Part shown: positions 3,079 through 27,585 of the stretch, in pieces
How the letters are laid out: every line of letters starts with the position of its first letter
How positions within the stretch are numbered: the stretch's first letter is position 1
Source of the DNA: Candidatus Poribacteria bacterium
GTDB lineage: Bacteria > Poribacteria > WGA-4E > JAJDTR01
Assembly (NCBI GenBank): GCA_965222225.1
Contig: CBDCTK010000002.1
Location: forward strand, 768,001 to 832,000
Direction: 5' to 3'
DNA length: 64,000 nt
The notes under the pieces: generated by a model
Told to the model about the DNA's origin: nothing
The model's database searches: none
Seen by the model: only the letters and a program-made list of their open reading frames with translations
Made by a program: the position numbers and the translations under genes

Positions 3079-3789
3079 TAGTGCCTCCGAAGAAGAAGAA
3101 AATGAACTAAGCTAACGTAGCTGGCTGCCGAGACGGCCTCGTTGAATAGCCTATCTAATGAATGGGGCTAGATTTGCAATGGTCCCTACTATATTACCAA
3201 ATACTATGGCAGGACGCAAGCAAGAGAATCGTTGCTAAGCGGGAGATTTGTCGAGATTACGCGGCCGAATGCTGAAAGTTTAATCACTTGGGTTTCTTTG
3301 ATTCGCAGTGAGCACAAAACAGGTTTGATTGATTAGCATGTTATTTCAAGTCTCGACTTCGGAAAAATGATGGGGCCCGGCAATTCTTGCCATTGTCAAA
3401 ACTATTGGTTCCGAGATACTGTCCATCCAGGCGGACATTTTAGATCGAGACTGTTTGCAAACCGCGAGGCTGACATTTGGATACCATTAGGATTATTAGG
3501 CTGAATCATAGAATAACACAACTGCTTAGAAAATGGAAAAATATTTTGAGGGGTATCCAATGCTGGTTCAAAGAGATATCTGTCCAAACGACCGGTGAAC
3601 AAAGGATTTTCGAAACTCCTCGGCATTACTCTGCAACAACCTCAAGTTTAAGAACTGAAAAAGAGATACGTATGCAAATCAAATTGAACTAGATCGAGAA
3701 GGGACGTTACTGCGGCAAGGATTGATCGAGTGGAAGAAGCCGATACCAAGAAATCTTACAAGAAAAAGCAATCTCTATCTAGCTATGAC

Positions 3790-4698
3790 TCACTGCTTCT
3801 TCTGAGAATTTTTCACGTTGTCTGCAGATACGTTTTTCACAGTTGTCGACTTTTTCTGTGATTCGGCAAGATATTCAAACAGATTGGGTTCATCGGTATC
3901 GTCTTCGATGTCAGAGGTTTGACGTACTGTTTCTTCCGACAGCGTGACGGGTTGTTTCGCTGTCGATTCAGGTGTGTTTTGGGGAGGGCGTTGGGGAGTC
4001 ATGCCTTGTGTGGTACCAATTCCCGTGGGTTGGCGATCTTGTGTTTCAAGTAGTTCTATCCGCTCCAATACTTGGTGCAGCGTTTTTCGCACCATCATGA
4101 GTTGATCTTGGAGGTTTTCCACACGAGCGGTTAACTGAGAGACCGTGTCAGCGACATCTTCTTGGCGGCTTTCGGATGCGGGGAGCGAAAACACCTGTTT
4201 GCCAGCTTTATTCGCGACATTCGGGCTTGGCGAGACAACGGGAGCTTGAGGGCGTGGGATGGATTCTTGTGTTGAACTCTTGGTCGGAGTGTCTTCGTGG
4301 AAAACGTCAAGCAATTTGATTTCATAGATGCCAGCGCCTATCCCTTTAGTTGAAAAGTATGAAACCCTGATCTTCATTTCTTGGCCAATCTCCATCTTGC
4401 GAAGGCGAAGGCTTAGATTCCAGATTACTGCGTCGTTATGCCAAGCAAGTTCCCAACCTGGACGACGATTCAATCCGCGCAGATAGGCAGTAACCAAACT
4501 AGTGTCAGAAATCTCCTGTACCAACGGCTCGGTGGTTAAGGTTCCGGTAGTTTCGACTGGCTGAAAATGAGCGTCAACCTCCGTGCGCGGCTGTACAATC
4601 GACATGGGGATTTCCCCCTGCTCTGCCTTCATGGTGGTCACCCATCCAGCGTCGCTTATTCGCTTGCACGCGATATTATAATGGTATTGAACTGCCAT
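3790..4698 (-). CDS. Hypothetical protein with central coiled coil and P/Q/T-rich linkers
   Basis: 302-aa ORF; heptad VSQLTARVENLQDQLMMVRKTLHQVLERIELLE. Confidence 0.6.
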   Translation of the reverse strand: MAVQYHYNIACKRISDAGWVTTMKAEQGEIPMSIVQPRTEVDAHFQPVETTGTLTTEPLVQEISDTSLVTAYLRGLNRRPGWELAWHNDAVIWNLSLRLRKMEIGQEMKIRVSYFSTKGIGAGIYEIKLLDVFHEDTPTKSSTQESIPRPQAPVVSPSPNVANKAGKQVFSLPASESRQEDVADTVSQLTARVENLQDQLMMVRKTLHQVLERIELLETQDRQPTGIGTTQGMTPQRPPQNTPESTAKQPVTLSEETVRQTSDIEDDTDEPNLFEYLAESQKKSTTVKNVSADNVKNSQKKQ

Positions 4699-4770
4699 TG
4701 CTTATGTTCCAGCCGAGATTGTTAAAGGCAAATTAAGAATGGCTTTATAATTTGCCTATATCTACCCAAT

Positions 4771-5604
4771 TCAAAGTGGTTTCAAGCGTTTGCGAATTGA
4801 ATCCAACGTTGGAATGTTTGCTGTATGCCGGCCTTCGACAGCAAATGAGGCGGCACAGTGAGCAAAATTCAACGCCTCCTGCGGTAATTGTGTTTCATAA
4901 TATTTTATTAGGAACGCCGTGGCAAATACATCACCAGCCCCGGTAGGGTCGATTTCGTTCGCAGCATAGGCGTTTGAGTTCAAAACCCGACCATTTTCAT
5001 AAAGAGTAGCCCCATGCATTCCCTTTGTCAATACCACAATTTTCGTCAGCTCAATATATTTTTCAAGTTCGTCAGGATATGTGCTCAAATCCTCATCACT
5101 CAGAATGAGGACGTCTGCGTACGGCAAGATTAATGTGGCGGAACTCCAACGCTTGGCAAGGACGCGGGAATTGCTATTACGATGCCGCATCCAACCTTGC
5201 GGGGTGACGCCGATTAGAGATCCGTTGAAACTATGGATACAATCGGGATCTACTTCGTCCGCAATTGGACACAAATACGCAACCTCCGCTTCACAACAAT
5301 CACCTGTGATATGTTGCGGCATCAATTTCGCTCCCAGTGCCAAGATAGATTGTTGGCGTTGACCATTCTCGCTGTAGCGATTGTCGAAAATCGTAGTGTG
5401 GGACGATTCTTGGTAAATAACTTCGATACCATTCAACAGCGGATTGCGTCGATTAAAGTCAACTCCCACTGCGGTTATTACACGAGCCTGGAGACCTAGA
5501 TGGCGGGCGGAAATAGCCGAATATGCCGCCGATCCGCCAAGCACATACCCCTTGGAGGTAACATCATAGCACAAATGCCCGATGGCGAGAAAGGTTGCAG
5601 TCAT
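4771..5604 (-). CDS. PfkB family carbohydrate kinase
   Basis: LGGSAAYSA N-terminal motif; DPTGAGDVFA C-terminal signature. Confidence 0.9.
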   Translation of the reverse strand: MTATFLAIGHLCYDVTSKGYVLGGSAAYSAISARHLGLQARVITAVGVDFNRRNPLLNGIEVIYQESSHTTIFDNRYSENGQRQQSILALGAKLMPQHITGDCCEAEVAYLCPIADEVDPDCIHSFNGSLIGVTPQGWMRHRNSNSRVLAKRWSSATLILPYADVLILSDEDLSTYPDELEKYIELTKIVVLTKGMHGATLYENGRVLNSNAYAANEIDPTGAGDVFATAFLIKYYETQLPQEALNFAHCAASFAVEGRHTANIPTLDSIRKRLKPL

Positions 5605-17867: not shown

Positions 17868-17925
17868 TCAAGCCGAATATGCTGAAGAGGAAAACTTGGA
17901 ACGTTATCTATACGGAGGCAACACG

Positions 17926-20832
17926 ATGAAGGGATTGTCGATAGGAATACAGCACCGGTTTAGCCTCCGGATTGAAACTCGGTGGGCAGCCCTAACTTTC
18001 ATCCTTCTCTGCATCGTCTGCTTGGAATTTGATCCGCTCAGTTCGCGAAAAGGATGGGCACAAGGGTTCGGGAAGAACAAGGTCACCGATCAACATTTCG
18101 ATTGGTTGATCCATCGGACAGAACACTTTCACATATACTATTATCCTGCGGAGGCACAGCTAGTGCCAATCATGGCGGATATTGCCGAAGAGGCATACGA
18201 AAAACATAGTGAAGACTTCGAACATGAGATTGCAGATCGAACACCGCTTATTCTCTATCAGTCGCACAAAGATTTTCAAGAAACGAACATCATTCTCCAA
18301 GAACTCCATGAGGGCATCGGCGGGTTCGCAGAGATTTTCAAGAGGCGGGTGGTGATTCCATTTACAGGGTCAATGGAAGCGTTTCGCGAGGTAATTTTTC
18401 ATGAGTTGGTTCACATCTTTCAATACGACATTATCTACCAAAAACCAACCGCTCGCATTTATAGCGGCGAATTCCTATATTCCGCACCAATCTGGTTCAT
18501 TGAGGGAAGTGCGGATTATTTCGCCGAAGACAACGATGCTATCGGCGAGATGGTATTGCGAGACGCGAGCGTTCACAATCGGATAGTCCCCCTAGTGCAC
18601 TTGCATAACTTTCGAATCCTTGGGGCGCAAGCTTTTCTAGGCTACAAGATGGGACAACTAGCGATAAAATACTTGGCTGAAACATACGGTCGCGAGAAGG
18701 TTGGGGAGATTATGCAGGAGTTGCGGCAGAGCCGAACCAAAGATTTGAATGAAGCGTTTCAGAATGTGCTGGAAATAAGCCTTGAAGAGTTTGACGAAGA
18801 TTGGCGTCGCACAGTGAAAAAGAAATATTGGCCGATGATTGAGCACCGAGATTTGCCCGACGCCGTGTCCAAGAATTTGACAGAAAAATCACGCTATTCA
18901 CATAACGTAAAACCGGTTTGGTCTCCGAGTGGCGACCTTATCGCGTATGTTACCGGGAATGAAGGTTTTGGCGAAATCGTCCTGATGTCCGCGAAGACGG
19001 GCGAGAGGATGGATAGAATTAGCAATCAATTTTTCGGAAGCAAATATGAAGAGATTCGTAGCGATGGACGAGCGCTTGCTTGGTCGCCGGATGGCAATCG
19101 TATCGCATTCATCGGAAAACATCGCGGCTCCGATTACTTTCTTGAGATAAACATCCTAAACAAACGGTTAACGCGTCGCATCAAGCTGGACTTTGACGCA
19201 GCTTCTTCACCCTCCTATGACGGTAGCGGCGAGCGGGTGGTTTTTTCTGCCATGAAGGACACACAGGCAGATCTTTACATCCTTGAATGTGCTACGGGTG
19301 AAATGGTTCCCTTGACGAACGATCGCTTTAACGATACGCATCCGGCTTGGAATCCAACACGTGAAGAGATTATCTATTCGTCTGAACGGGAAGGAAAGTC
19401 CAAGCTAATCGTCATTGATGTTATCCGACGGACACAACGGCAACTGACCCATGACAACTATGGCTCTGTAAGTCCAAATTGGTCGCCAAGCGGAGAGGAG
19501 GTCATCTTCTGCACCGACATACGAGGTGTATATGACATTTATACGATAAAGTCTGACGGTACGGAGCTTACTCGGTGGACCAACATTATGACGGGTTGTT
19601 TCAATCCCAGTTTCTCGCCGGACCGTAAGAGTATTGTGTTCGCGGCATATCAGAATGGCAAACAAGATATCTATCTCATGGAAACAGATAAAGCAATCAA
19701 TGAGAAGATAGATATGCCTCCAGTGGAATTGCGTCCTGTAGCTCTAGAAGCCAATGAAGAGCGAGAACATCGGATTTCCAGAAGAAAATACGGTCCCAAA
19801 GTTGCTCTGGATGCGATATTTACAGATTTTAACTTGGGTGCGGATGGCCTTCTGCGTAATACGACGGAGCTTATTGCCAGTGATATGATGGGAAATCATC
19901 GCTTGGGCTTGAGTGTGGCGAATCAATCGGGTTTTGTCGCGCCCGATTTCATTGCGCGCTACGGGTATCTTTCACGCCGTGCCGATATTGGCGCGGCAAT
20001 ATTCAATTACCATCAATATCATGTGTTGGGCTCGACGCGCAATCGAAGGGGTTTGCTGCAACGAACCACCGGGTTGATGGGTTATTTCAGCTATCCTTTT
20101 AATCGCTACAGGCGTATTGATTTTCAGACTTTGTTCTATTCCACGCCGTTCACTTACAACTTCGAGACCAATCGTACCTTCGACGACGGTCGTGGATTTC
20201 TTATGCTCGGCACAGTTTCTTTCGTGAACGACACCACAAGGTGGAGGGAATTCGGTCCGCATACCGGCGCACGTTACCGGTTCGCTCTTGAAAAATCATT
20301 TCGCGACCTTGGCAGCGACTTAGATCTTATCAATGTCATTTTCGATGGACGGCGGTATTTCAAACTGGGGAGACGATCGACATTGGCAACACGCCTATTC
20401 TTGGGGGGCAGTTTTGGTGAGGATCAATCTCTGCTCTATCTTGGCGGTATTGATTCTCTCCGAGGCTACCGATATGAGGAGCTTGTTGGCACGCGCATGG
20501 GATTACTCAATTTTGAAGTGCGCATCCCGTTCATTGACGAACTGCGTTTCGGTTGGCCTTTCGCATGGGCGATCGGTGGCATTCGAGGAATCATATTTGC
20601 GGATTTTGGTACTGTTTGGTCGGATAACGAATTCAATTCCGAGAATAGATATCACGTTTTACGACGTGACGGGAATTGGTACCGTCTTGACGATGTAAAA
20701 GGAACGATTGGCATCGGACTACGTCTGCAACTGGGTTTGTTTTCACTGGATCTCGCCGCAGCACGGCGTACAGACTTGGCAAGTGTAAATCCGGAAGTTA
20801 GGTACCACTTCGGATTGGGCCGAGCGTTTTAA
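17926..20832 (+). CDS. Omp85/BamA-family outer membrane protein with N-terminal zincin-like domain and PD40 beta-propeller
   Basis: HELVH plus WFIEGSADY; repeated PxWSPxG; barrel motifs LGGIDSLRGY, FADFG; C-terminal FGLGRAF. Confidence 0.88.
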   Translation: MKGLSIGIQHRFSLRIETRWAALTFILLCIVCLEFDPLSSRKGWAQGFGKNKVTDQHFDWLIHRTEHFHIYYYPAEAQLVPIMADIAEEAYEKHSEDFEHEIADRTPLILYQSHKDFQETNIILQELHEGIGGFAEIFKRRVVIPFTGSMEAFREVIFHELVHIFQYDIIYQKPTARIYSGEFLYSAPIWFIEGSADYFAEDNDAIGEMVLRDASVHNRIVPLVHLHNFRILGAQAFLGYKMGQLAIKYLAETYGREKVGEIMQELRQSRTKDLNEAFQNVLEISLEEFDEDWRRTVKKKYWPMIEHRDLPDAVSKNLTEKSRYSHNVKPVWSPSGDLIAYVTGNEGFGEIVLMSAKTGERMDRISNQFFGSKYEEIRSDGRALAWSPDGNRIAFIGKHRGSDYFLEINILNKRLTRRIKLDFDAASSPSYDGSGERVVFSAMKDTQADLYILECATGEMVPLTNDRFNDTHPAWNPTREEIIYSSEREGKSKLIVIDVIRRTQRQLTHDNYGSVSPNWSPSGEEVIFCTDIRGVYDIYTIKSDGTELTRWTNIMTGCFNPSFSPDRKSIVFAAYQNGKQDIYLMETDKAINEKIDMPPVELRPVALEANEEREHRISRRKYGPKVALDAIFTDFNLGADGLLRNTTELIASDMMGNHRLGLSVANQSGFVAPDFIARYGYLSRRADIGAAIFNYHQYHVLGSTRNRRGLLQRTTGLMGYFSYPFNRYRRIDFQTLFYSTPFTYNFETNRTFDDGRGFLMLGTVSFVNDTTRWREFGPHTGARYRFALEKSFRDLGSDLDLINVIFDGRRYFKLGRRSTLATRLFLGGSFGEDQSLLYLGGIDSLRGYRYEELVGTRMGLLNFEVRIPFIDELRFGWPFAWAIGGIRGIIFADFGTVWSDNEFNSENRYHVLRRDGNWYRLDDVKGTIGIGLRLQLGLFSLDLAAARRTDLASVNPEVRYHFGLGRAF

Positions 20833-20884
20833 GACTTAAAGATTGAACAGCCCGTTTCAATCTTCAGCTCAAGAAAGGAAAAAT

Positions 20885-23800
20885 ATGGATTCACGTTACA
20901 ATCGATTGATTGTTCTCATTGCCATACTCGCTGCAATTGGCGTGTTGGTTGCCATCTTTGTGAAAATCTATCCAGACCTACTATGGTTTGGTGTTGTAGG
21001 TTATGGCTCGGTATACAAGAAGATTCTGCTTACAAAAGTGTTCTTAGGGGTTGGTATTGGCAGTTTCTTTCTTTTTGTTACTTTGCTTAACGTCTATCTG
21101 TTGTATCGCTTAACTCCTAGTCGGCTTAGCCGGACGGTTATGGAGAGTATTCCGATAAGAGGAGAGGCTGATTTCGATCTGCGTCGGCTAATCTATGGCG
21201 TATTAACACTCTTGGCGATAGGGTTTAGCCTCCTGATGGGCTATGCGGCGACAGATCGATGGGAGCCTTTTCTGCGGTATTCAAATGCCGAGGGACTCAC
21301 TTTTCAGAATGCCACGCGGCTCGTTGAACCGGTTAGCCGTGATGCTACCGAGTTACACATTGCCGAACTGGAACTAAAAGCCAAAGGCATGCGAGTTGGG
21401 GACTCGGTTGTGATTCAAGATACAGGCGGAAAGGCGACTGCAAGCATCCAATCCATTCAGGTTCAAGGCGATGGCGTTGCAAAAATCCAATTGGAGAGCC
21501 CCGTAGGATTCGATGTAACGACAAATGCGACGCTGATGGCAGCAGCACGCGATCCGATTTTTCAGAAGGATGTCAGCTATTATGTTTTCAGGATGCCCCT
21601 TGAACGCTTCATCATTGGGAATCTGTTTGGATTGTTCATGTTGTTGACCTTCTTTTCTGTCGCCATTTACTTTTTTCACGGTCTGCTCATCGGCGATAAC
21701 AATCGTCTTGCCCCGCCGCCCCGGGTTAAAGTTCATCTCCTGACACTTGGTGCATTGACACTGATATTTCGCGGCTTGAACTATCGTTTTGCAATGTATG
21801 ATTTGCTCTACACGACGAATGATGTTGTGCGCGGTGGTGGTGGATACGCCGCAATACACGCCCGCCTACCGCTATTGAAAATCCTCTTGGTACTTTCACT
21901 CATTTGCGCCGGGATTTTTCTGGTTAGCATTTTCCTAAAGCGACTCAGATATGCTTTCGGAGCGTTTGGAATCTTTCTGCTCGTCGGTCTGATTGGACAA
22001 GTCTATCCGACTGTAGTGCAGAAATGGCGCGTTGAACCGAACAAACAGGAACTTGAGACAGAATACATCAACTACAATATCAAGGCAACACTGCATAGCT
22101 ACCATCTGGAAGAGAATAGGGTTACGGAAGAGGAATATCCCTTGACTGGTGAACTCTCGTACGAAAGCGTTAGAAATCAGGAAAACGCCGCGGTAATGAA
22201 CAGTATTCGACTTTGGGATGAACGCCCCATCCAGCGGACTTTCCGACAGTTGCAGGAATTGCGCTCACAATACGATTTTCATAGCGTGGACATTGATCGG
22301 TACTCAGTAGACGGTTCGCCGCGTCAAGTAATGTTATCCGTACGAGAATTGAACATAAACGAACTTCCGCACGCCGTTCGGAACGATTGGTTTAAGCGCA
22401 CCTATGTATTCACCCATGGATATGGGGCTGTGATGAGTCCCGTTAACGAGATTCTTGATGGAAAACCGAAAATGTATGTTGGGGATATAGATCCGATTGA
22501 CTATGAGCCCGAGTGGGATTATCGATTCGGTGAAAACCCGGGACCTCGGATCTACTATGGAGAACGCACGAATCATTATATTATCGTGCATCCGGGACGT
22601 AAGGAAGAGTTGGAATTTGATTACCCGACATCATTTGGTGAAGATTTTGCCAAGTATGCGTACCAAGGAATGGGAGGTGTTGAACTCTCCTCCTTTTGGC
22701 GCAGGTTTGTATATATGCTGAAGTTTGGTAATGAGTTCAAGTTCGTTCTTCCGGGGGCGATTGAGTCCAATAGTCGCGTACTCTATCATCGCAACATCAA
22801 GGAGCGAGTCAAAAAAATTGCGCCTTTCCTTCAGTATGATGGCGACCCATATGCAATCGTCCATGACGGCAAATTGGTCTGGATGCTTGATGCCTATACG
22901 ACCACACATCGGTATCCGTATTCGGCGCCGATGCAACATGCATTACGCGCCGAAATTGCCGAACAGCGCGGCAGACGTGCTGCCGGTCGGATTCAAGGCG
23001 GTGAAAAACCCTGGGGGAATTACATCCGCAATGCAGTAAAGGTTGTGGTTGATGCTTATGACGGCAGCATAGAATTTTATGTCATGGAGCGGGAAAAAGA
23101 TCCGATTGTCACATGTTATCGCAGTATTTTTCCTGATTTGTTCAAGCCTTTTGACATGATGTCAGACGCACTCAAAAGACATATCCGCTACCCGACCACA
23201 ATGTTTCTCATTCAGGCGCGGATGTATCAGGATTATCACATGAAGGATCCGATCACATTCTACGCAAGCGAGGATCAGTGGGAAATTGGGAAGGAACTTT
23301 ACGACAATACGGAACGTCAACGTCCTCCGCAGGCTCAGATGCCATCAAGCCCGTTCGCCCCGCGTCAGCCAAGCTTGCCTGAAACTATCACGAATGTTCA
23401 GGAGGTGGCGCCCTATTATGTAATTATCAAGTTGCCGGGCGAGGAACGGGCTGAATTCATGCTTATGTTGCCGTTTACACCCAAGAACAAACCTAACCTA
23501 ACGGCTTGGTTCGCGGCCCGATGCGACCTTCCACAATACGGACAACTGTTAGTTTATCGGTTTCCGAAGGGAAAACTCGCGCCCGGACCAATGCAAGTCG
23601 AGAACTTCATTAGCCAAGAACCTGAAATCTCCCAGCAGATTTCATTGTGGGACAGTCAGGGTTCACGCGTGCTCCGTGGTAATCTGCTGATTATCCCGAT
23701 GAATGAATCTATCCTCTATGTAGAACCCATCTATATCCAGGCGGAGGATGCCGCAACGGCGATTCCCGAGTTACGGAGGGTGGTCATAGGGTACAAGGAG

Positions 23801-24097
23801 AAGGTGGCTTGGGGAAAGACCCTTGATGAAGCGCTGATTAACATATTCGGAAAAAGTCTGGCGTCTGCTATAGGTGGTTCCGTCACATCTGAGGATGGCT
23901 CCAACATCATGCGTGTAGACGTGCCAACGTCTAGTAAGACATCCGCTCGCGATTTAGTAAACTCGGCGAGCCAACACTTTGAATCGGCGCAGAAGGCTCT
24001 ACGCGATGGAAATTGGTCGGAGTATGGCAGACATCTGAATCTATTGGAGCAGACTTTGAAGCAACTGGAAGCGAATACACAGAAAGGAGGTGAATAG
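20885..24097 (+). CDS. UPF0182 family membrane protein
   Basis: DLLWF..GY, DPIF..D.SYYVF..P, IRLWD, DIDRY, THGYG, PRIYYGE, DGDPY, NYIRN.VKVVVDAYDG, RGNLL..P..ILYVEPIY. Confidence 0.93.
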   Translation: MDSRYNRLIVLIAILAAIGVLVAIFVKIYPDLLWFGVVGYGSVYKKILLTKVFLGVGIGSFFLFVTLLNVYLLYRLTPSRLSRTVMESIPIRGEADFDLRRLIYGVLTLLAIGFSLLMGYAATDRWEPFLRYSNAEGLTFQNATRLVEPVSRDATELHIAELELKAKGMRVGDSVVIQDTGGKATASIQSIQVQGDGVAKIQLESPVGFDVTTNATLMAAARDPIFQKDVSYYVFRMPLERFIIGNLFGLFMLLTFFSVAIYFFHGLLIGDNNRLAPPPRVKVHLLTLGALTLIFRGLNYRFAMYDLLYTTNDVVRGGGGYAAIHARLPLLKILLVLSLICAGIFLVSIFLKRLRYAFGAFGIFLLVGLIGQVYPTVVQKWRVEPNKQELETEYINYNIKATLHSYHLEENRVTEEEYPLTGELSYESVRNQENAAVMNSIRLWDERPIQRTFRQLQELRSQYDFHSVDIDRYSVDGSPRQVMLSVRELNINELPHAVRNDWFKRTYVFTHGYGAVMSPVNEILDGKPKMYVGDIDPIDYEPEWDYRFGENPGPRIYYGERTNHYIIVHPGRKEELEFDYPTSFGEDFAKYAYQGMGGVELSSFWRRFVYMLKFGNEFKFVLPGAIESNSRVLYHRNIKERVKKIAPFLQYDGDPYAIVHDGKLVWMLDAYTTTHRYPYSAPMQHALRAEIAEQRGRRAAGRIQGGEKPWGNYIRNAVKVVVDAYDGSIEFYVMEREKDPIVTCYRSIFPDLFKPFDMMSDALKRHIRYPTTMFLIQARMYQDYHMKDPITFYASEDQWEIGKELYDNTERQRPPQAQMPSSPFAPRQPSLPETITNVQEVAPYYVIIKLPGEERAEFMLMLPFTPKNKPNLTAWFAARCDLPQYGQLLVYRFPKGKLAPGPMQVENFISQEPEISQQISLWDSQGSRVLRGNLLIIPMNESILYVEPIYIQAEDAATAIPELRRVVIGYKEKVAWGKTLDEALINIFGKSLASAIGGSVTSEDGSNIMRVDVPTSSKTSARDLVNSASQHFESAQKALRDGNWSEYGRHLNLLEQTLKQLEANTQKGGE

Positions 24098-24098
24098 A

Positions 24099-24380
24099 AT
24101 GGGATTGGATTGGAAACCACGCCATCGGGATACGCTTATCGGAGACATTTCTTGGTTGGCACGAATTACTGACAAGGCAAACGCCAAGTTAGCCGGTACA
24201 ATCGGTGATTACATTTACCCGTGACCGGCAGACAAAAAGTTCCTGGAGGAACACAAGATAAGTGCTGAAGCATTCGTTGAGATGGTGAAGAAAAATCCTT
24301 CGGACGTTGAAATGATTGCAGCGATGAAGTCGCTCAACAAGCCATCAAAGAAGGGCAAGTCGAAGAGCCGTAAATCCTGA
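24099..24380 (+). CDS. DUF5069-like small protein, probable selenoprotein (UGA at codon 42)
   Basis: AAGGAGGTGA SD; MGLDWKPRHRDTLIGDISWLARITDKANAKLAGTIGDYIYP-UGA-PADKKFLEEHKISAEAFVEMV; frame stays open 51 more codons; hairpin just downstream of the UGA. Confidence 0.72.
24239..24252 (+). promoter_or_regulatory. Candidate bacterial SECIS apical stem-loop
   Basis: GTTCC-TGGA-GGAAC; loop G lies 21 nt after UGA 24222-24224. Confidence 0.55.
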
Positions 24381-24528
24381 TGAGACAGCCGTAATGCGTG
24401 AAAGCTTACCATGCGGGTCCAATGAATAAAATCAAGTCGTTTATCATTCACTCGACTAAACTAGTATCGGGTTTTATCCCTCATGATTCATGCATTACGT
24501 CTCTCCTATTCTATGGGAGATTCTATTA

Positions 24529-25614
24529 TTGGAATTAGAAACTTTCCGAGATCAGTTGGATGAGATTGACAATCGGATATTGCTCCTGCTGCACAATCGC
24601 GCCGAGGTGGTACGTAAAGTTGGGCAACTCAAAGCGAAAGCAGGCGTGGAAAACGTCTATGTTCCTCACCGAGAGACAGAAATTCTTGCTCGGTTGCGGG
24701 CAACGAATCGCAACTACTTTCCCGCGGATGCATTGGACACAATTTTTTCCGAGATAATTTCCGCATGTCGGTCATTGGAGAGACGTTTACGGGTAGCTTT
24801 TCTAGGTCCCGCAGGGAGTTTCGGTCATGCGGCGGCTCTTCGACATTTTGGTTCGTCGGTTGATTTCACTCCAACAATGGATCAAACCGATGTATTTGTG
24901 GAGGTTGAATCGGGCGGAGCGGATTACGGCGTCGTTGCCATAGAGAACTCATCGAGAGGGACAGTCCGCGACGTATTAGAGATGTTTGAAGTTACGACGT
25001 TACAAATCTGCGCAGAGGTGATTTTGCCGATTGACCAGAACCTACTTTCTAATACTTCAAAGGAGCAAATCACTAAAGTTTATTCGCACCCACAGCCGTT
25101 TGCGCAATGCCGAGAGTGGTTGCGCCAAAATCTAAGGGGTGTGCGGCAGATTGAAGTCGCAAGCACATCGGAAGCCGCACACTTGGCGGCGGCAGAGGAA
25201 GACGCCGCGGCTATAGCCAGCAGGCTCGCCGCTGAAATCTATGGCTTGCGAATTGTCGATGAGTCAATCATGGACAGTTCGAACAATATAACGCGCTTCC
25301 TCGTGATTGGACGACATACTGCGAAGAGAAGCGGTCAAGATCGTACGTCAGTTTTTATTGCCATCCAAGACAGAGTTGGCGCTCTTTACGAAGTGTTGAC
25401 GGTTCTACAGAAGCACCAAATTAATATGAGCAAGATTGAATCAATGCCAGCCCAGACAAAGCCGTGGGAGTACGTGTTTTACGTCGATTTGGATGGACAT
25501 ATCGAAGATGTTAACGTACAGGCAGCGCTGCCAGAGCTTGAAGCATTGTGCATGCATGTCAAGCTGCTAGGTTCCTATGCCCGTGGCGCATCGCCACAGG
25601 ACAAATCGACCTAG
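24529..25614 (+). CDS. pheA: Chorismate mutase / prephenate dehydratase (P-protein)
   Basis: CM R..LDEID..IL.LL..RA; VAFLGPAGSF; YSHPQPFAQC; NITRF; ACT domain with IESMP..WEYVFYVD. Likely TTG start at 24529. Confidence 0.95.
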   Translation: MELETFRDQLDEIDNRILLLLHNRAEVVRKVGQLKAKAGVENVYVPHRETEILARLRATNRNYFPADALDTIFSEIISACRSLERRLRVAFLGPAGSFGHAAALRHFGSSVDFTPTMDQTDVFVEVESGGADYGVVAIENSSRGTVRDVLEMFEVTTLQICAEVILPIDQNLLSNTSKEQITKVYSHPQPFAQCREWLRQNLRGVRQIEVASTSEAAHLAAAEEDAAAIASRLAAEIYGLRIVDESIMDSSNNITRFLVIGRHTAKRSGQDRTSVFIAIQDRVGALYEVLTVLQKHQINMSKIESMPAQTKPWEYVFYVDLDGHIEDVNVQAALPELEALCMHVKLLGSYARGASPQDKST

Positions 25615-26541
25615 TTTAAGAGGGTAAAAACCTCCACCTGCACTAACGGTCCATGAACGACAGAAGTGTCGGGAGGCCCGGAGACCTCCGGCCCGGTCGT
25701 GTCGCGCCGATTCGACAAAGCCTACATTTTCCAAATTCTAGCCCCATAGATTTTACCCTTGCCAAAATCATTACTATGCTTAGACATTGTAAAACCGCGC
25801 TGCAAGCGCAATCGCGTTTACTAAACTGTGTGTGATTATCGACGGAATCAGCGAGCGCGTGCGATGAAACAGCAGTGCTACAACCACGCCAAAAACAAAC
25901 GATGGAATAAACTGAATCACTCCTCCGTGAAAAATAGCATAGAAAAGGGCACTTAATGTGATACCTGCAGAATAACCAAATCGACGGGCGAAAGCGGAAT
26001 ATCCAATTCCTCTATAAAATACTTCGTAAGCAATTGGCGAAAGAACTATTGAAACGAAAGCGATAAGAATTATCGAAGCATCGAAATCTTCGGGCAGGTA
26101 CGCGGATTCTTGGTCGCGTTCCCATTGAACAAGGTTTTCCAAGGATGCAAAGGAGGTCCAACGACTAACTTGTAATATGACGTGGACGGTAGATTCAGAG
26201 AAGAGGAATAGCAGCGGCGCAAGCACCAATGGAAGGGCGATTTGGCGATAACTAAACGTGAATTGAAGACCAATCGAGTTGAGGCGTCCGAGATACCGGG
26301 CCGTGATACAGTGGAAACACAACCAAATGAGCGCATTTGCCGCAATGAGCTCAATGGTCCAAAATTGAGAAGGTGAGAGCGTTGTGATATCAACTACTTC
26401 AGTAAGTAGGTCCGATCCATCTCTAATCAGAAATATGATATAGAGACATAACCTGTGAACTAGGAGTGCAGCCAAAGAAATGACCATTACGTCTGACGGT
26501 TCAGGATATCCATGTAGCCGTAGAACAGTTTCCTCTCTAGT

Positions 26542-27585
26542 TAGGAGTTACGCAGTTGGCTGAAGCGTATAAAGAGGTTGTGCCAAATAAGCCCGTACCG
26601 CATCTCTGACAATAGAGAGTTTTGCATCAAACCAACTGATACCGGTATGATAGCAATAGTGCTCAATTCTCAGAAAGGCTCTCAGCGCTAAACCGATATG
26701 ATTTCTTTGAGTGCGAGCAGAGCGCACTTGTGCGCGTTCAATGCCAACAAATTGCTTAATCCCGCGATGATATTCTTCTATTGTCCAAGACCATTCGGCA
26801 TATTTGAGACGCGTCAATTCGTCCATCTGTAAATCATTCGTTGCCCAATATTCAATGTCACCTTCTGGAGTGTCAACCTTAAATACTCGAATCAATCCAT
26901 AGCCTTTGAGATGGACAATTGTACCTGTTGATTCACTCGGAAGCGTACTCACCGGACGGTTACCGGAATAATCTTTACTGACAAGTCGGTTGGCAGCTAG
27001 ACGAGTAAGCCACTTCCAACCATGACCTCGCACCGCTTTTAGATTCTTTAGACTGGCATACCAACTATCAAAACACACACATTCAGGAGCAAAACCGCGT
27101 GTTTTCGCTTCTTCAAGCATGGCGCGGAAATGCTCATTCTTCGTCAAGCCGTCTTTGGCTTTATCATAGATTCGATAATCACACGGAATATGTCTATCGC
27201 CATCCGTCCAGAGCAAAGTGACCAAGTTAATCCCATTCACAACTCGGTGGTGTTTCCCTGACCAGTGTTTTGTCACGAGTTCAATCTTTTGTGAATAAGG
27301 TTTATCCAGAGTCGAGTCATCTATAACTAAAATTCCGGATTCTAATTTCACCTGATTTCTCGATTCTTGCCGCAGTTTGCCAGTATCGGGTTCCTCTCGA
27401 TGCAAGAGCCGTGTTATCGAATCGTGAGCCGGAGGATTATCAGCTTGGGGTTGAACTTTTTCCGATTCAAGACAACTGTAACTTTTCTGAGCGGCTACCA
27501 AGAAATCAATATAGTCAGTGTCAGTATATTTAGGGGGATTCATACTCAAATTATAACCTATTTTCACTCAACTGCGTAACTCCTA
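26542..27585 (-). mobile_element. IS701 family insertion sequence
   Basis: Perfect 17-bp IR TAGGAGTTACGCAGTTG; flanking direct repeat TCTAGT (core CTAG). Confidence 0.92.
26548..27567 (-). CDS. IS701 family transposase
   Basis: HDSITRLL, LVIDDSTLDKPY, FDSWYAS..NLK, WTIEEYHRGIKQ (DDE). Confidence 0.93.
   Translation of the reverse strand: MKIGYNLSMNPPKYTDTDYIDFLVAAQKSYSCLESEKVQPQADNPPAHDSITRLLHREEPDTGKLRQESRNQVKLESGILVIDDSTLDKPYSQKIELVTKHWSGKHHRVVNGINLVTLLWTDGDRHIPCDYRIYDKAKDGLTKNEHFRAMLEEAKTRGFAPECVCFDSWYASLKNLKAVRGHGWKWLTRLAANRLVSKDYSGNRPVSTLPSESTGTIVHLKGYGLIRVFKVDTPEGDIEYWATNDLQMDELTRLKYAEWSWTIEEYHRGIKQFVGIERAQVRSARTQRNHIGLALRAFLRIEHYCYHTGISWFDAKLSIVRDAVRAYLAQPLYTLQPTA

Follow-up and report, generated by a model that had tools for sequence, protein, structure and literature searches.

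In bacterial genes of the type represented by Escherichia coli fdhF, an in-frame UGA codon that is paired with cysteine (Cys) in homologous proteins is decoded as selenocysteine (Sec), and the selenocysteine insertion sequence (SECIS) read by SelB is a stem-loop located just downstream of this codon, within the coding sequence. For the bacterial form of this element (bSECIS), the legend to Fig. 2 of PMC13188914 gives an apical loop of 3-9 nt, an upper stem of 4-16 bp and a G in the first two loop positions, and the same paper places the loop 16-37 nt from the UGA and sets the minimum free energy (MFE) at -7.5 kcal/mol or lower. Table 1 of that paper (2026) contains 119 prokaryotic selenoprotein families and subfamilies, including, with NF accessions, the families of PMC12013261; as tabulated, most have one Sec, Cys homologues and a presumed redox role, and several are DUFs (DUF3179, DUF166, DUF1573, DUF1858, DUF523). 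The subject of this report is a gene at positions 24099 to 24380 of a 64,000-nt stretch of the genome of a Candidatus Poribacteria bacterium (assembly GCA_965222225.1, contig CBDCTK010000002.1, positions 768,001 to 832,000; this whole stretch is called the window). Like the fdhF-type genes, it combines UGA/Cys pairing with a stem-loop just downstream within the coding sequence, and judging from comparison with its homologues we take it, with a probability of roughly 0.9, to be a real, translated gene for a selenoprotein of 93 amino acids (aa) belonging to the DUF5069 family.

The gene lies on the forward strand (24099..24380) and comprises 93 codons, with Sec as codon 42. An ATG at 24099-24101 opens a run of 41 sense codons that leads to the TGA at 24222-24224, after which 51 further sense codons extend to a terminal TGA at 24378-24380; a second in-frame TGA (24381..24383) directly abuts the terminal one, forming a tandem stop. 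The start is preceded by the Shine-Dalgarno sequence AAGGAGGTGA (24084..24093), which overlaps the 3' end of the upstream UPF0182 gene and whose GGAGG core at 24086-24090 is located 8 nt ahead of the ATG. The start, the Shine-Dalgarno overlap and the 41 and 51 codons on the two sides of the TGA had been described in an earlier note on this DNA and are found in the sequence as stated there. When read through, the frame yields a product of 93 aa with U at position 42 and without any second Cys, and homologues share the start M-[GSAP]-LDWKPR at a matching ATG. The gene escapes annotation because of the internal UGA. The earlier note had stated that the mechanical list of open reading frames (ORFs) misses it completely; the full gene is indeed not shown there, but its N-terminal piece is, as a 44-aa ORF with a GTG start (24090..24224) that ends at the internal TGA, so that the gene is truncated in the list rather than wholly absent.

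With the read-through product (P0001, C written for U) as query, Pfam DUF5069 (PF16798) is matched at E 9.5e-15 and 55.4 bits, compared to a gathering cut-off of 27, and the match covers residues 7-83 and therefore both sides of the TGA. Since only positions 4-80 of the 133 profile positions are covered, the protein represents a short form of DUF5069. The only structure that is recovered is PDB 3OMD, an uncharacterised protein of Leptospirillum rubarum, which is found by phmmer at E 5.6e-13 with the Cys of its Y-N-C-P-L-D motif on the UGA column, and which is also the sole Foldseek match in the PDB below E = 1, with a template modelling (TM) score of 0.71 (query-normalised) and 40% identity over 73 columns. 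The AlphaFold model used for this comparison (25 sequences; mean predicted local distance difference test, pLDDT, 77.9; predicted TM score, pTM, 0.65) consists of a short hairpin and four helices (H20-32, H43-51, H56-65 and H69-79), and the position of helix H43-51 therefore places residue 42 directly at the N-terminus of a helix. The window protein thus resembles PF16798 and 3OMD in its score over the curated cut-off, in its predicted fold and in the Y-x-C-P-x-D motif on the Sec column, but differs from them in being short (93 aa) and in carrying Sec instead of Cys. A thioredoxin-like fold with a UxxC or CxxU motif was not found, as the Foldseek search of the PDB gave no match other than 3OMD below E = 1 and the 93 aa contain a single Sec and no second Cys. 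Furthermore, in NCBIfam release 20.0, selenoprotein models included, no family is matched by the protein at E up to 1.

When 1.84 billion representatives were searched with a profile, 679 members of the family scored E 0.001 or below. Cys occupies the site in at least 71 of the top 150 according to classing by regular expression, and most of the 38 that could not be parsed in this way also show C-[PG]-x-D; one representative has W. Longer homologues that might reveal fusion partners were sought with the natural Cys form P0010 and none were found at E up to 1e-5, which is weak evidence. The genome also encodes a second DUF5069 protein outside the window, a 446-aa frame with three tandem repeats (C2:5588461-5589798, minus strand). 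Such tandem-repeat paralogues read Y-G-E-[DN]-S-G, not Y-P-C-P, and have no Cys at the site; frames akin to the triple repeat measure 289 aa and roughly 430-450 aa in relatives.

The pairing of UGA with Cys is apparent at the level of DNA. The Sec codon (24222..24224, forward strand) falls on the conserved Cys of YP[C/U]PxD when loci are compared column by column, as the earlier note had suspected from the YPCPxD signature of the family, and similarity continues beyond it, as the extent of the PF16798 match shows. Across 110 loci, 30 from genomes of the same order and 80 from a scan of species-representative genomes, the column holds TGA in 91 and TGC or TGT in 19, corresponding to 73 and 19 distinct sequences. 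All 61 genomes of this order that were searched (60 relatives and the window genome; 4 families, 11 genera) carry an ortholog interrupted by an internal TGA; this TGA falls on the Cys column in all 30 same-order loci that were retrieved, and the remaining 31 genomes are known by stop count alone. Both codon types thus occur in one column among homologues, and the close relatives carry TGA. The TGA forms belong to metagenome-assembled genomes (MAGs) labelled Poribacteria and Latescibacterota, plus one labelled Gemmatimonadetes; the Cys forms are found in other Poribacteria and Latescibacterota and in Gemmatimonadota, Chloroflexota and Handelsmanbacteria.

The genome contains the machinery that decoding as Sec would require, with selA, selB, selC and selD all present. 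The genes for SelA, SelB and the tRNA-Sec (anticodon tca) are adjacent in one cluster (C2:1590469-1593762). SelA is matched at E 1e-129 or better in 61/61 relatives with the UGA form and also in the three of three Sec-form genomes tested from other phyla. The selD gene, which lies outside the window (C2:2933348-2934274, minus strand), itself contains Sec, with an in-frame TGA in C-A-G-U-A-S-K that is followed by a strong hairpin with a GGG loop (-19.5 kcal/mol over the UGA and 60 nt); its loop Gs are located 21-23 nt from the U of the UGA, compared to 24-25 nt in the DUF5069 gene. In one Cys-form Poribacteria genome, an intact SelA copy is accompanied by a second SelA match in two overlapping frames (G062:C3:1661-2765; model positions 1-158 and 156-366), which may be a frameshifted duplicate.

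It is improbable that the UGA is instead read through without Sec, either by near-cognate insertion of Trp, Cys or Arg or because TGA is reassigned (codes 4 or 25), with the hairpin merely stimulating read-through. Public gene calls do give W at the column in 14 of 35 database homologues, the other 21 having Cys, and the hairpin is small and falls short of the usual energy limit. However, all 14 Trp forms (P0002-P0009, P0012, P0014, P0015, P0019, P0021 and P0023) are gene calls from metagenome assemblies, and two of them, P0002 and P0021, also run on through a real stop with W, as would be expected from calling short contigs with TGA as Trp, in the manner of genetic code 4, so that the Trp calls are best regarded as gene-caller artefacts. 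In the window genome, TGA closes 439 of the 1318 frames of at least 400 codons, near the frequency of TAA (474) and TAG (405), and is therefore a normal stop that has not been reassigned. Moreover, the residue at the column in the 19 loci with a sense codon is always Cys, the classic partner of Sec, and never Trp or Gly, and every one of the 61 genomes with the UGA form has SelA.

We give as little credence to the proposal that the UGA terminates translation, leaving a 41-aa peptide and a downstream conservation that would reflect an RNA element or a separately translated fragment. Standard callers do stop there, as in the ORF at 24090..24224, and 11 of the 150 top-scoring family representatives break off immediately ahead of the Sec column. 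These 11 are the footprint of gene callers stopping at a Sec codon, and several observations speak for one continuous protein: the Pfam domain and the 3OMD alignment run through the UGA in frame, the sense-codon homologues are single proteins of 81-101 aa, and the sequence after the UGA offers no start codon preceded by a ribosome-binding site. In addition, variation downstream of the UGA is concentrated at the third codon positions of the frame, where the entropy is 1.45 bit compared to 0.64 bit at first and 0.52 bit at second positions, which on sequence comparison is a normal coding signature persisting past the UGA.

Independent assemblies bear on the integrity of the codon itself. The stretch is present in 20 runs from 10 studies, six on record as RNA, and contigs were compared from four runs of as many studies, three of them metatranscriptomes and one of unknown type. 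At 24222-24224, no other letter occurs in the contigs of these 4 runs; two contigs from RNA libraries, of 2897 and 1517 nt, cover all of 23800-24700. A loose end in one run corresponds to a relative's version of the locus, which has the in-frame TGA too. A pseudogene, or a Cys codon turned into TGA by a mistake in sequencing or assembly, has a probability close to nil and is already contradicted by the data: TGA is one base from TGC and TGT and the genome is a metagenome-type assembly of 2 contigs, but TGA recurs in 91 of 110 loci of many independent assemblies, in all 61 genomes searched in the order and in the contigs of the four runs just mentioned, each from a different study, and the frame is intact, with purifying selection on both sides of the TGA. 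In the same material, summed contig word depth leaps at 24234-24264 (in run X9, for instance, it rises from 87 to 2445); this was not used as a measure of expression and probably represents summed contigs of related strains with common invariant hairpin words.

The candidate SECIS hairpin (24239..24252, forward strand) has a stem of GTTCC (24239-24243) and GGAAC (24248-24252) that encloses a UGGA loop (24244-24247). It begins 14 nt past the UGA, or 17 nt in three sequences with an extra codon, and the gap from UGA to loop is 19 nt; the loop G at 24245 is located 21 nt past the A of the UGA, exactly as the earlier note had described it. With a 4-nt loop, G at loop positions 2 and 3, a stem of 5 bp (up to 7 bp in relatives) and a spacing of 19 nt, the hairpin agrees with the bSECIS geometry quoted above from PMC13188914. 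The perfect 5-bp stem with the UGGA loop is found in 73/73 distinct Sec forms and in 0/19 Cys forms. All 73 distinct sequences, which derive from MAGs bearing the labels of three phyla, share the 10-nt core UCCUGGAGGA without exception, and each of its two flanking positions differs in a single sequence. Within the 5.7-Mb genome, the exact 14-mer is found once, compared to 0.02 occurrences expected.

The element is also constrained at synonymous sites. At the 14 hairpin positions of the Sec forms, entropy is 0.03-0.10 bit at all codon positions, compared to 0.98, 0.74 and 1.58 bit (codon positions 1, 2 and 3) at the matching positions of the Cys forms. The synonymous sites of TTC CTG GAG GAA are all fixed in Sec forms, which encode FLEE in 72 of 73 distinct sequences (L104: FLEG), whereas Cys forms vary there in both DNA and protein (FLEK, FLER, FLQR, WLQK, LLGA and others). 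The Cys forms L080 and L081, which are nested in a Sec clade, have one stem mismatch each. RNAalifold predicts a 6-bp helix, in which the closing pair is GC in 67 sequences, CG in 3, AU in 2 and GU in 1 and is broken in none; the next pair outward is UA in 27, AU in 19, GU in 6 and unpaired in 21. In the 7-bp helix, pairing reaches 89.4% of cells compared to 82.9% in shuffles and the covariation score is 0.144 compared to 0.057, with 0 of 500 shuffles reaching the observed value in either case, counts that are not probabilities because the sequences are related. Sliding the partner strand by 1-3 columns lowers the pairing to 19-64%.

Several results weigh against the interpretation of this locus as a translated selenoprotein gene and deserve to be listed together. 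The hairpin alone has a folding energy of -5.7 kcal/mol in the window, above the limit of -7.5 kcal/mol given in PMC13188914, and with 9 nt on each side it reaches this limit in just 32 of 73 homologues. The UGA and the following 60 nt fold at -10.7 kcal/mol in the window and pass the limit in 73/73 sequences, yet the extra pairs are not conserved, and the MFE fold of this segment retains the hairpin in 54/73. The 76-nt fold of the window is no better than that of shuffled sequences (z = 0.26; 117 of 200 shuffles fold as well) and was not used as support, and a permissive Rfam scan of 24000-24500 gave no SECIS family, just five chance-level matches (E 1.9-7.8). Compared to the bSECIS model of PMC13188914, as its published limits describe it, the hairpin is thus unusually small and weak, with a nearly invariant core and no Rfam model match. 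Nor is the Cys form explained by loss of the Sec machinery, an idea that was rejected since a strong SelA match is present in 4 of 5 Cys-form genomes and in both the L080 and the L081 genomes; as Cys-form genomes mostly have SelA too, the SelA test does not discriminate Sec from Cys forms. Finally, the contigs from RNA libraries do not establish transcription. For the hairpin, the comparison of homologues, and not single-sequence folding, is what argues that it is beyond chance.

That the palindromic hairpin is a minus-strand terminator or a protein-binding site unrelated to recoding is barely conceivable, for although a terminator scan lists it on the minus strand as a stem followed by TTTTT, the frame around it is coding and conserved, the A-run from which the T-tail would arise is variable in homologues (AAAAAG, AAAATG, AAGTTG, CAGAAAG in alignment A2), its presence tracks the UGA exactly, and it has gained a mismatch in the nested Cys forms L080 and L081.

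The steps by which the selenoprotein would be made can be deduced from what is established for Sec in bacteria. Sec-tRNA(Sec), brought by SelB, would decode the UGA at 24222-24224 as selenocysteine, and SelB in turn would be recruited by the compact GUUCC-UGGA-GGAAC hairpin starting 14 nt downstream, inside the coding sequence. Translation would then end at the next UGA (24378), downstream of which there is no hairpin. The predicted product is a short, mostly helical DUF5069 domain with a single Sec in place of the hallmark Cys, immediately ahead of a helix in the model.

The relationship between Sec and Cys forms was addressed with a tree of 65 distinct 73-residue cores in which the Sec/Cys column was masked. 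This tree needs 5 changes of the Sec/Cys label, of which at least 3 are forced by well-supported branches, and the Sec forms fall into three clades: Poribacteria (32 rows), Latescibacterota and a small third clade. As the hairpin core is identical in the three clades and the change from Sec to Cys requires a single base, the distribution suggests that Sec is old in the short subfamily and has been replaced by Cys several times. The age of the Sec form is an inference, because the tree is unrooted and short.

With respect to function, the Sec would most likely act as a nucleophile, in redox chemistry or otherwise, with no resolving Cys to assist it; it may, for instance, form a selenenyl-sulfide with a partner thiol. 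Such a redox role has to be weighed against the composition of the protein, which has no second conserved Cys and whose one Sec caps the N-terminal end of a modelled helix, and against the gene context, which gives three differing lineage-specific neighbourhoods with no universal partner in the loci compared. An FNR-like neighbour in one of these, as judged from gene order, is the sole lead to a candidate redox partner. A wider proposal, which we consider rather doubtful, joins these strands: DUF5069 may be an unrecognised non-thioredoxin module for redox or selenium handling, in which the Cys or Sec at the beginning of helix 2 is the active residue. The short forms labelled Poribacteria, Latescibacterota and Gemmatimonadota would descend from a Sec-containing ancestor and would have exchanged Sec for Cys at least three to five times, the ultra-conserved minimal SECIS would lock F-L-E-E, and in one lineage an adjoining FNR-type NAD(P)H oxidoreductase would reduce the protein, so that the two made up a new electron relay.

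The earlier note did not know DUF5069 as a selenoprotein family, and the literature agrees as far as it was covered. Full-text literature searches found no paper on DUF5069 or PF16798. The family is missing from the 119 families and subfamilies in Table 1 of PMC13188914, although supplementary lists elsewhere, such as Table S2 of BSepDB, could name it, and it is not mentioned in the available parts of the deep-Sep and BSepDB papers (PMC12013277, PMC13326102). Work on selenoproteins in Poribacteria yielded one theme in the accessible portions of the papers, namely NiFeSe hydrogenases, and work on Latescibacter selenoproteins and on sponge-symbiont selenoproteomes apparently contains nothing on DUF5069, judged by titles and the beginnings of abstracts. 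Compared to the families in Table 1 of PMC13188914, DUF5069 is alike in having one Sec, Cys homologues and a presumed redox role, but it is unlisted, has no NCBIfam match, has a predicted fold that is not thioredoxin-like and carries a YPUP motif without a CxxU or UxxC partner.

On comparative evidence, DUF5069 is a new candidate selenoprotein family that would use the standard bacterial mechanism, notable for its breadth and for its very small, highly conserved SECIS. It would add a family to the prokaryotic selenoproteome and would correct the annotation of a gene that, in public data, is missed, cut at codon 41 or given Trp in at least 61 Poribacteria genomes and many Latescibacterota. Substitution by Sec is a classic pointer to a catalytic or redox residue. 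The UGA would accordingly mark the likely active residue of DUF5069 and provide a first functional handle on a domain with a crystal structure (3OMD). In addition, SECIS models, and ideas on how SelB recognises RNA in phyla that have received little study, could be tested on this very small and highly conserved hairpin.

In the window, the gene is flanked on the same strand by the gene for a UPF0182 family membrane protein (20843..24097, stop TAG at 24095-24097; Pfam PF03699, E 6.9e-242) and by pheA (24490..25614; chorismate mutase, prephenate dehydratase and ACT, matched by Pfam CM_2, PDT and ACT). Among the 44 Poribacteria-type loci (L036-L078, L083), pheA is located downstream in 42, Cys forms included, the two exceptions being truncated loci, and UPF0182 is located upstream in 33; neither gene was found in the other 36 loci (L079-L082, L084-L115). 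The link to an Omp85/UPF0182 operon that had been suggested for this locus therefore stands as a lineage-specific association, and pheA is the more constant neighbour. In a Latescibacterota group, the order is TPR, RsmD-like and DUF5069 gene; a match to the RsmD-like ORF is present in 17 loci. A third group of 6-8 loci, which includes both Sec and Cys forms, has a conserved ORF of 336-523 aa without a Pfam match, the DUF5069 gene, an FNR-type NAD_binding_1 oxidoreductase and a GT2 glycosyltransferase in this order (L106, L095, L107, L111, L114 and L115, at about 3250-5100 in each; L082 by Pfam).

Further features of the surrounding DNA may be mentioned for completeness. The so-called Omp85 gene (17896-20832, forward strand) encodes a 978-aa multidomain protein with Peptidase_MA, PD40/beta-propeller and C-terminal Omp85 domains. 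The spacer before pheA (24401-24487) shows intergenic strain variation, a variant contig in runs X4 and X9 having 81 other letters in place of 85 nt. On the minus strand, a gene for an Rce1-like CAAX protease (25780-26487) adjoins a DDE-type transposase gene (DDE_5 / DDE_Tnp_1; 26548-27567), which is located two genes downstream.

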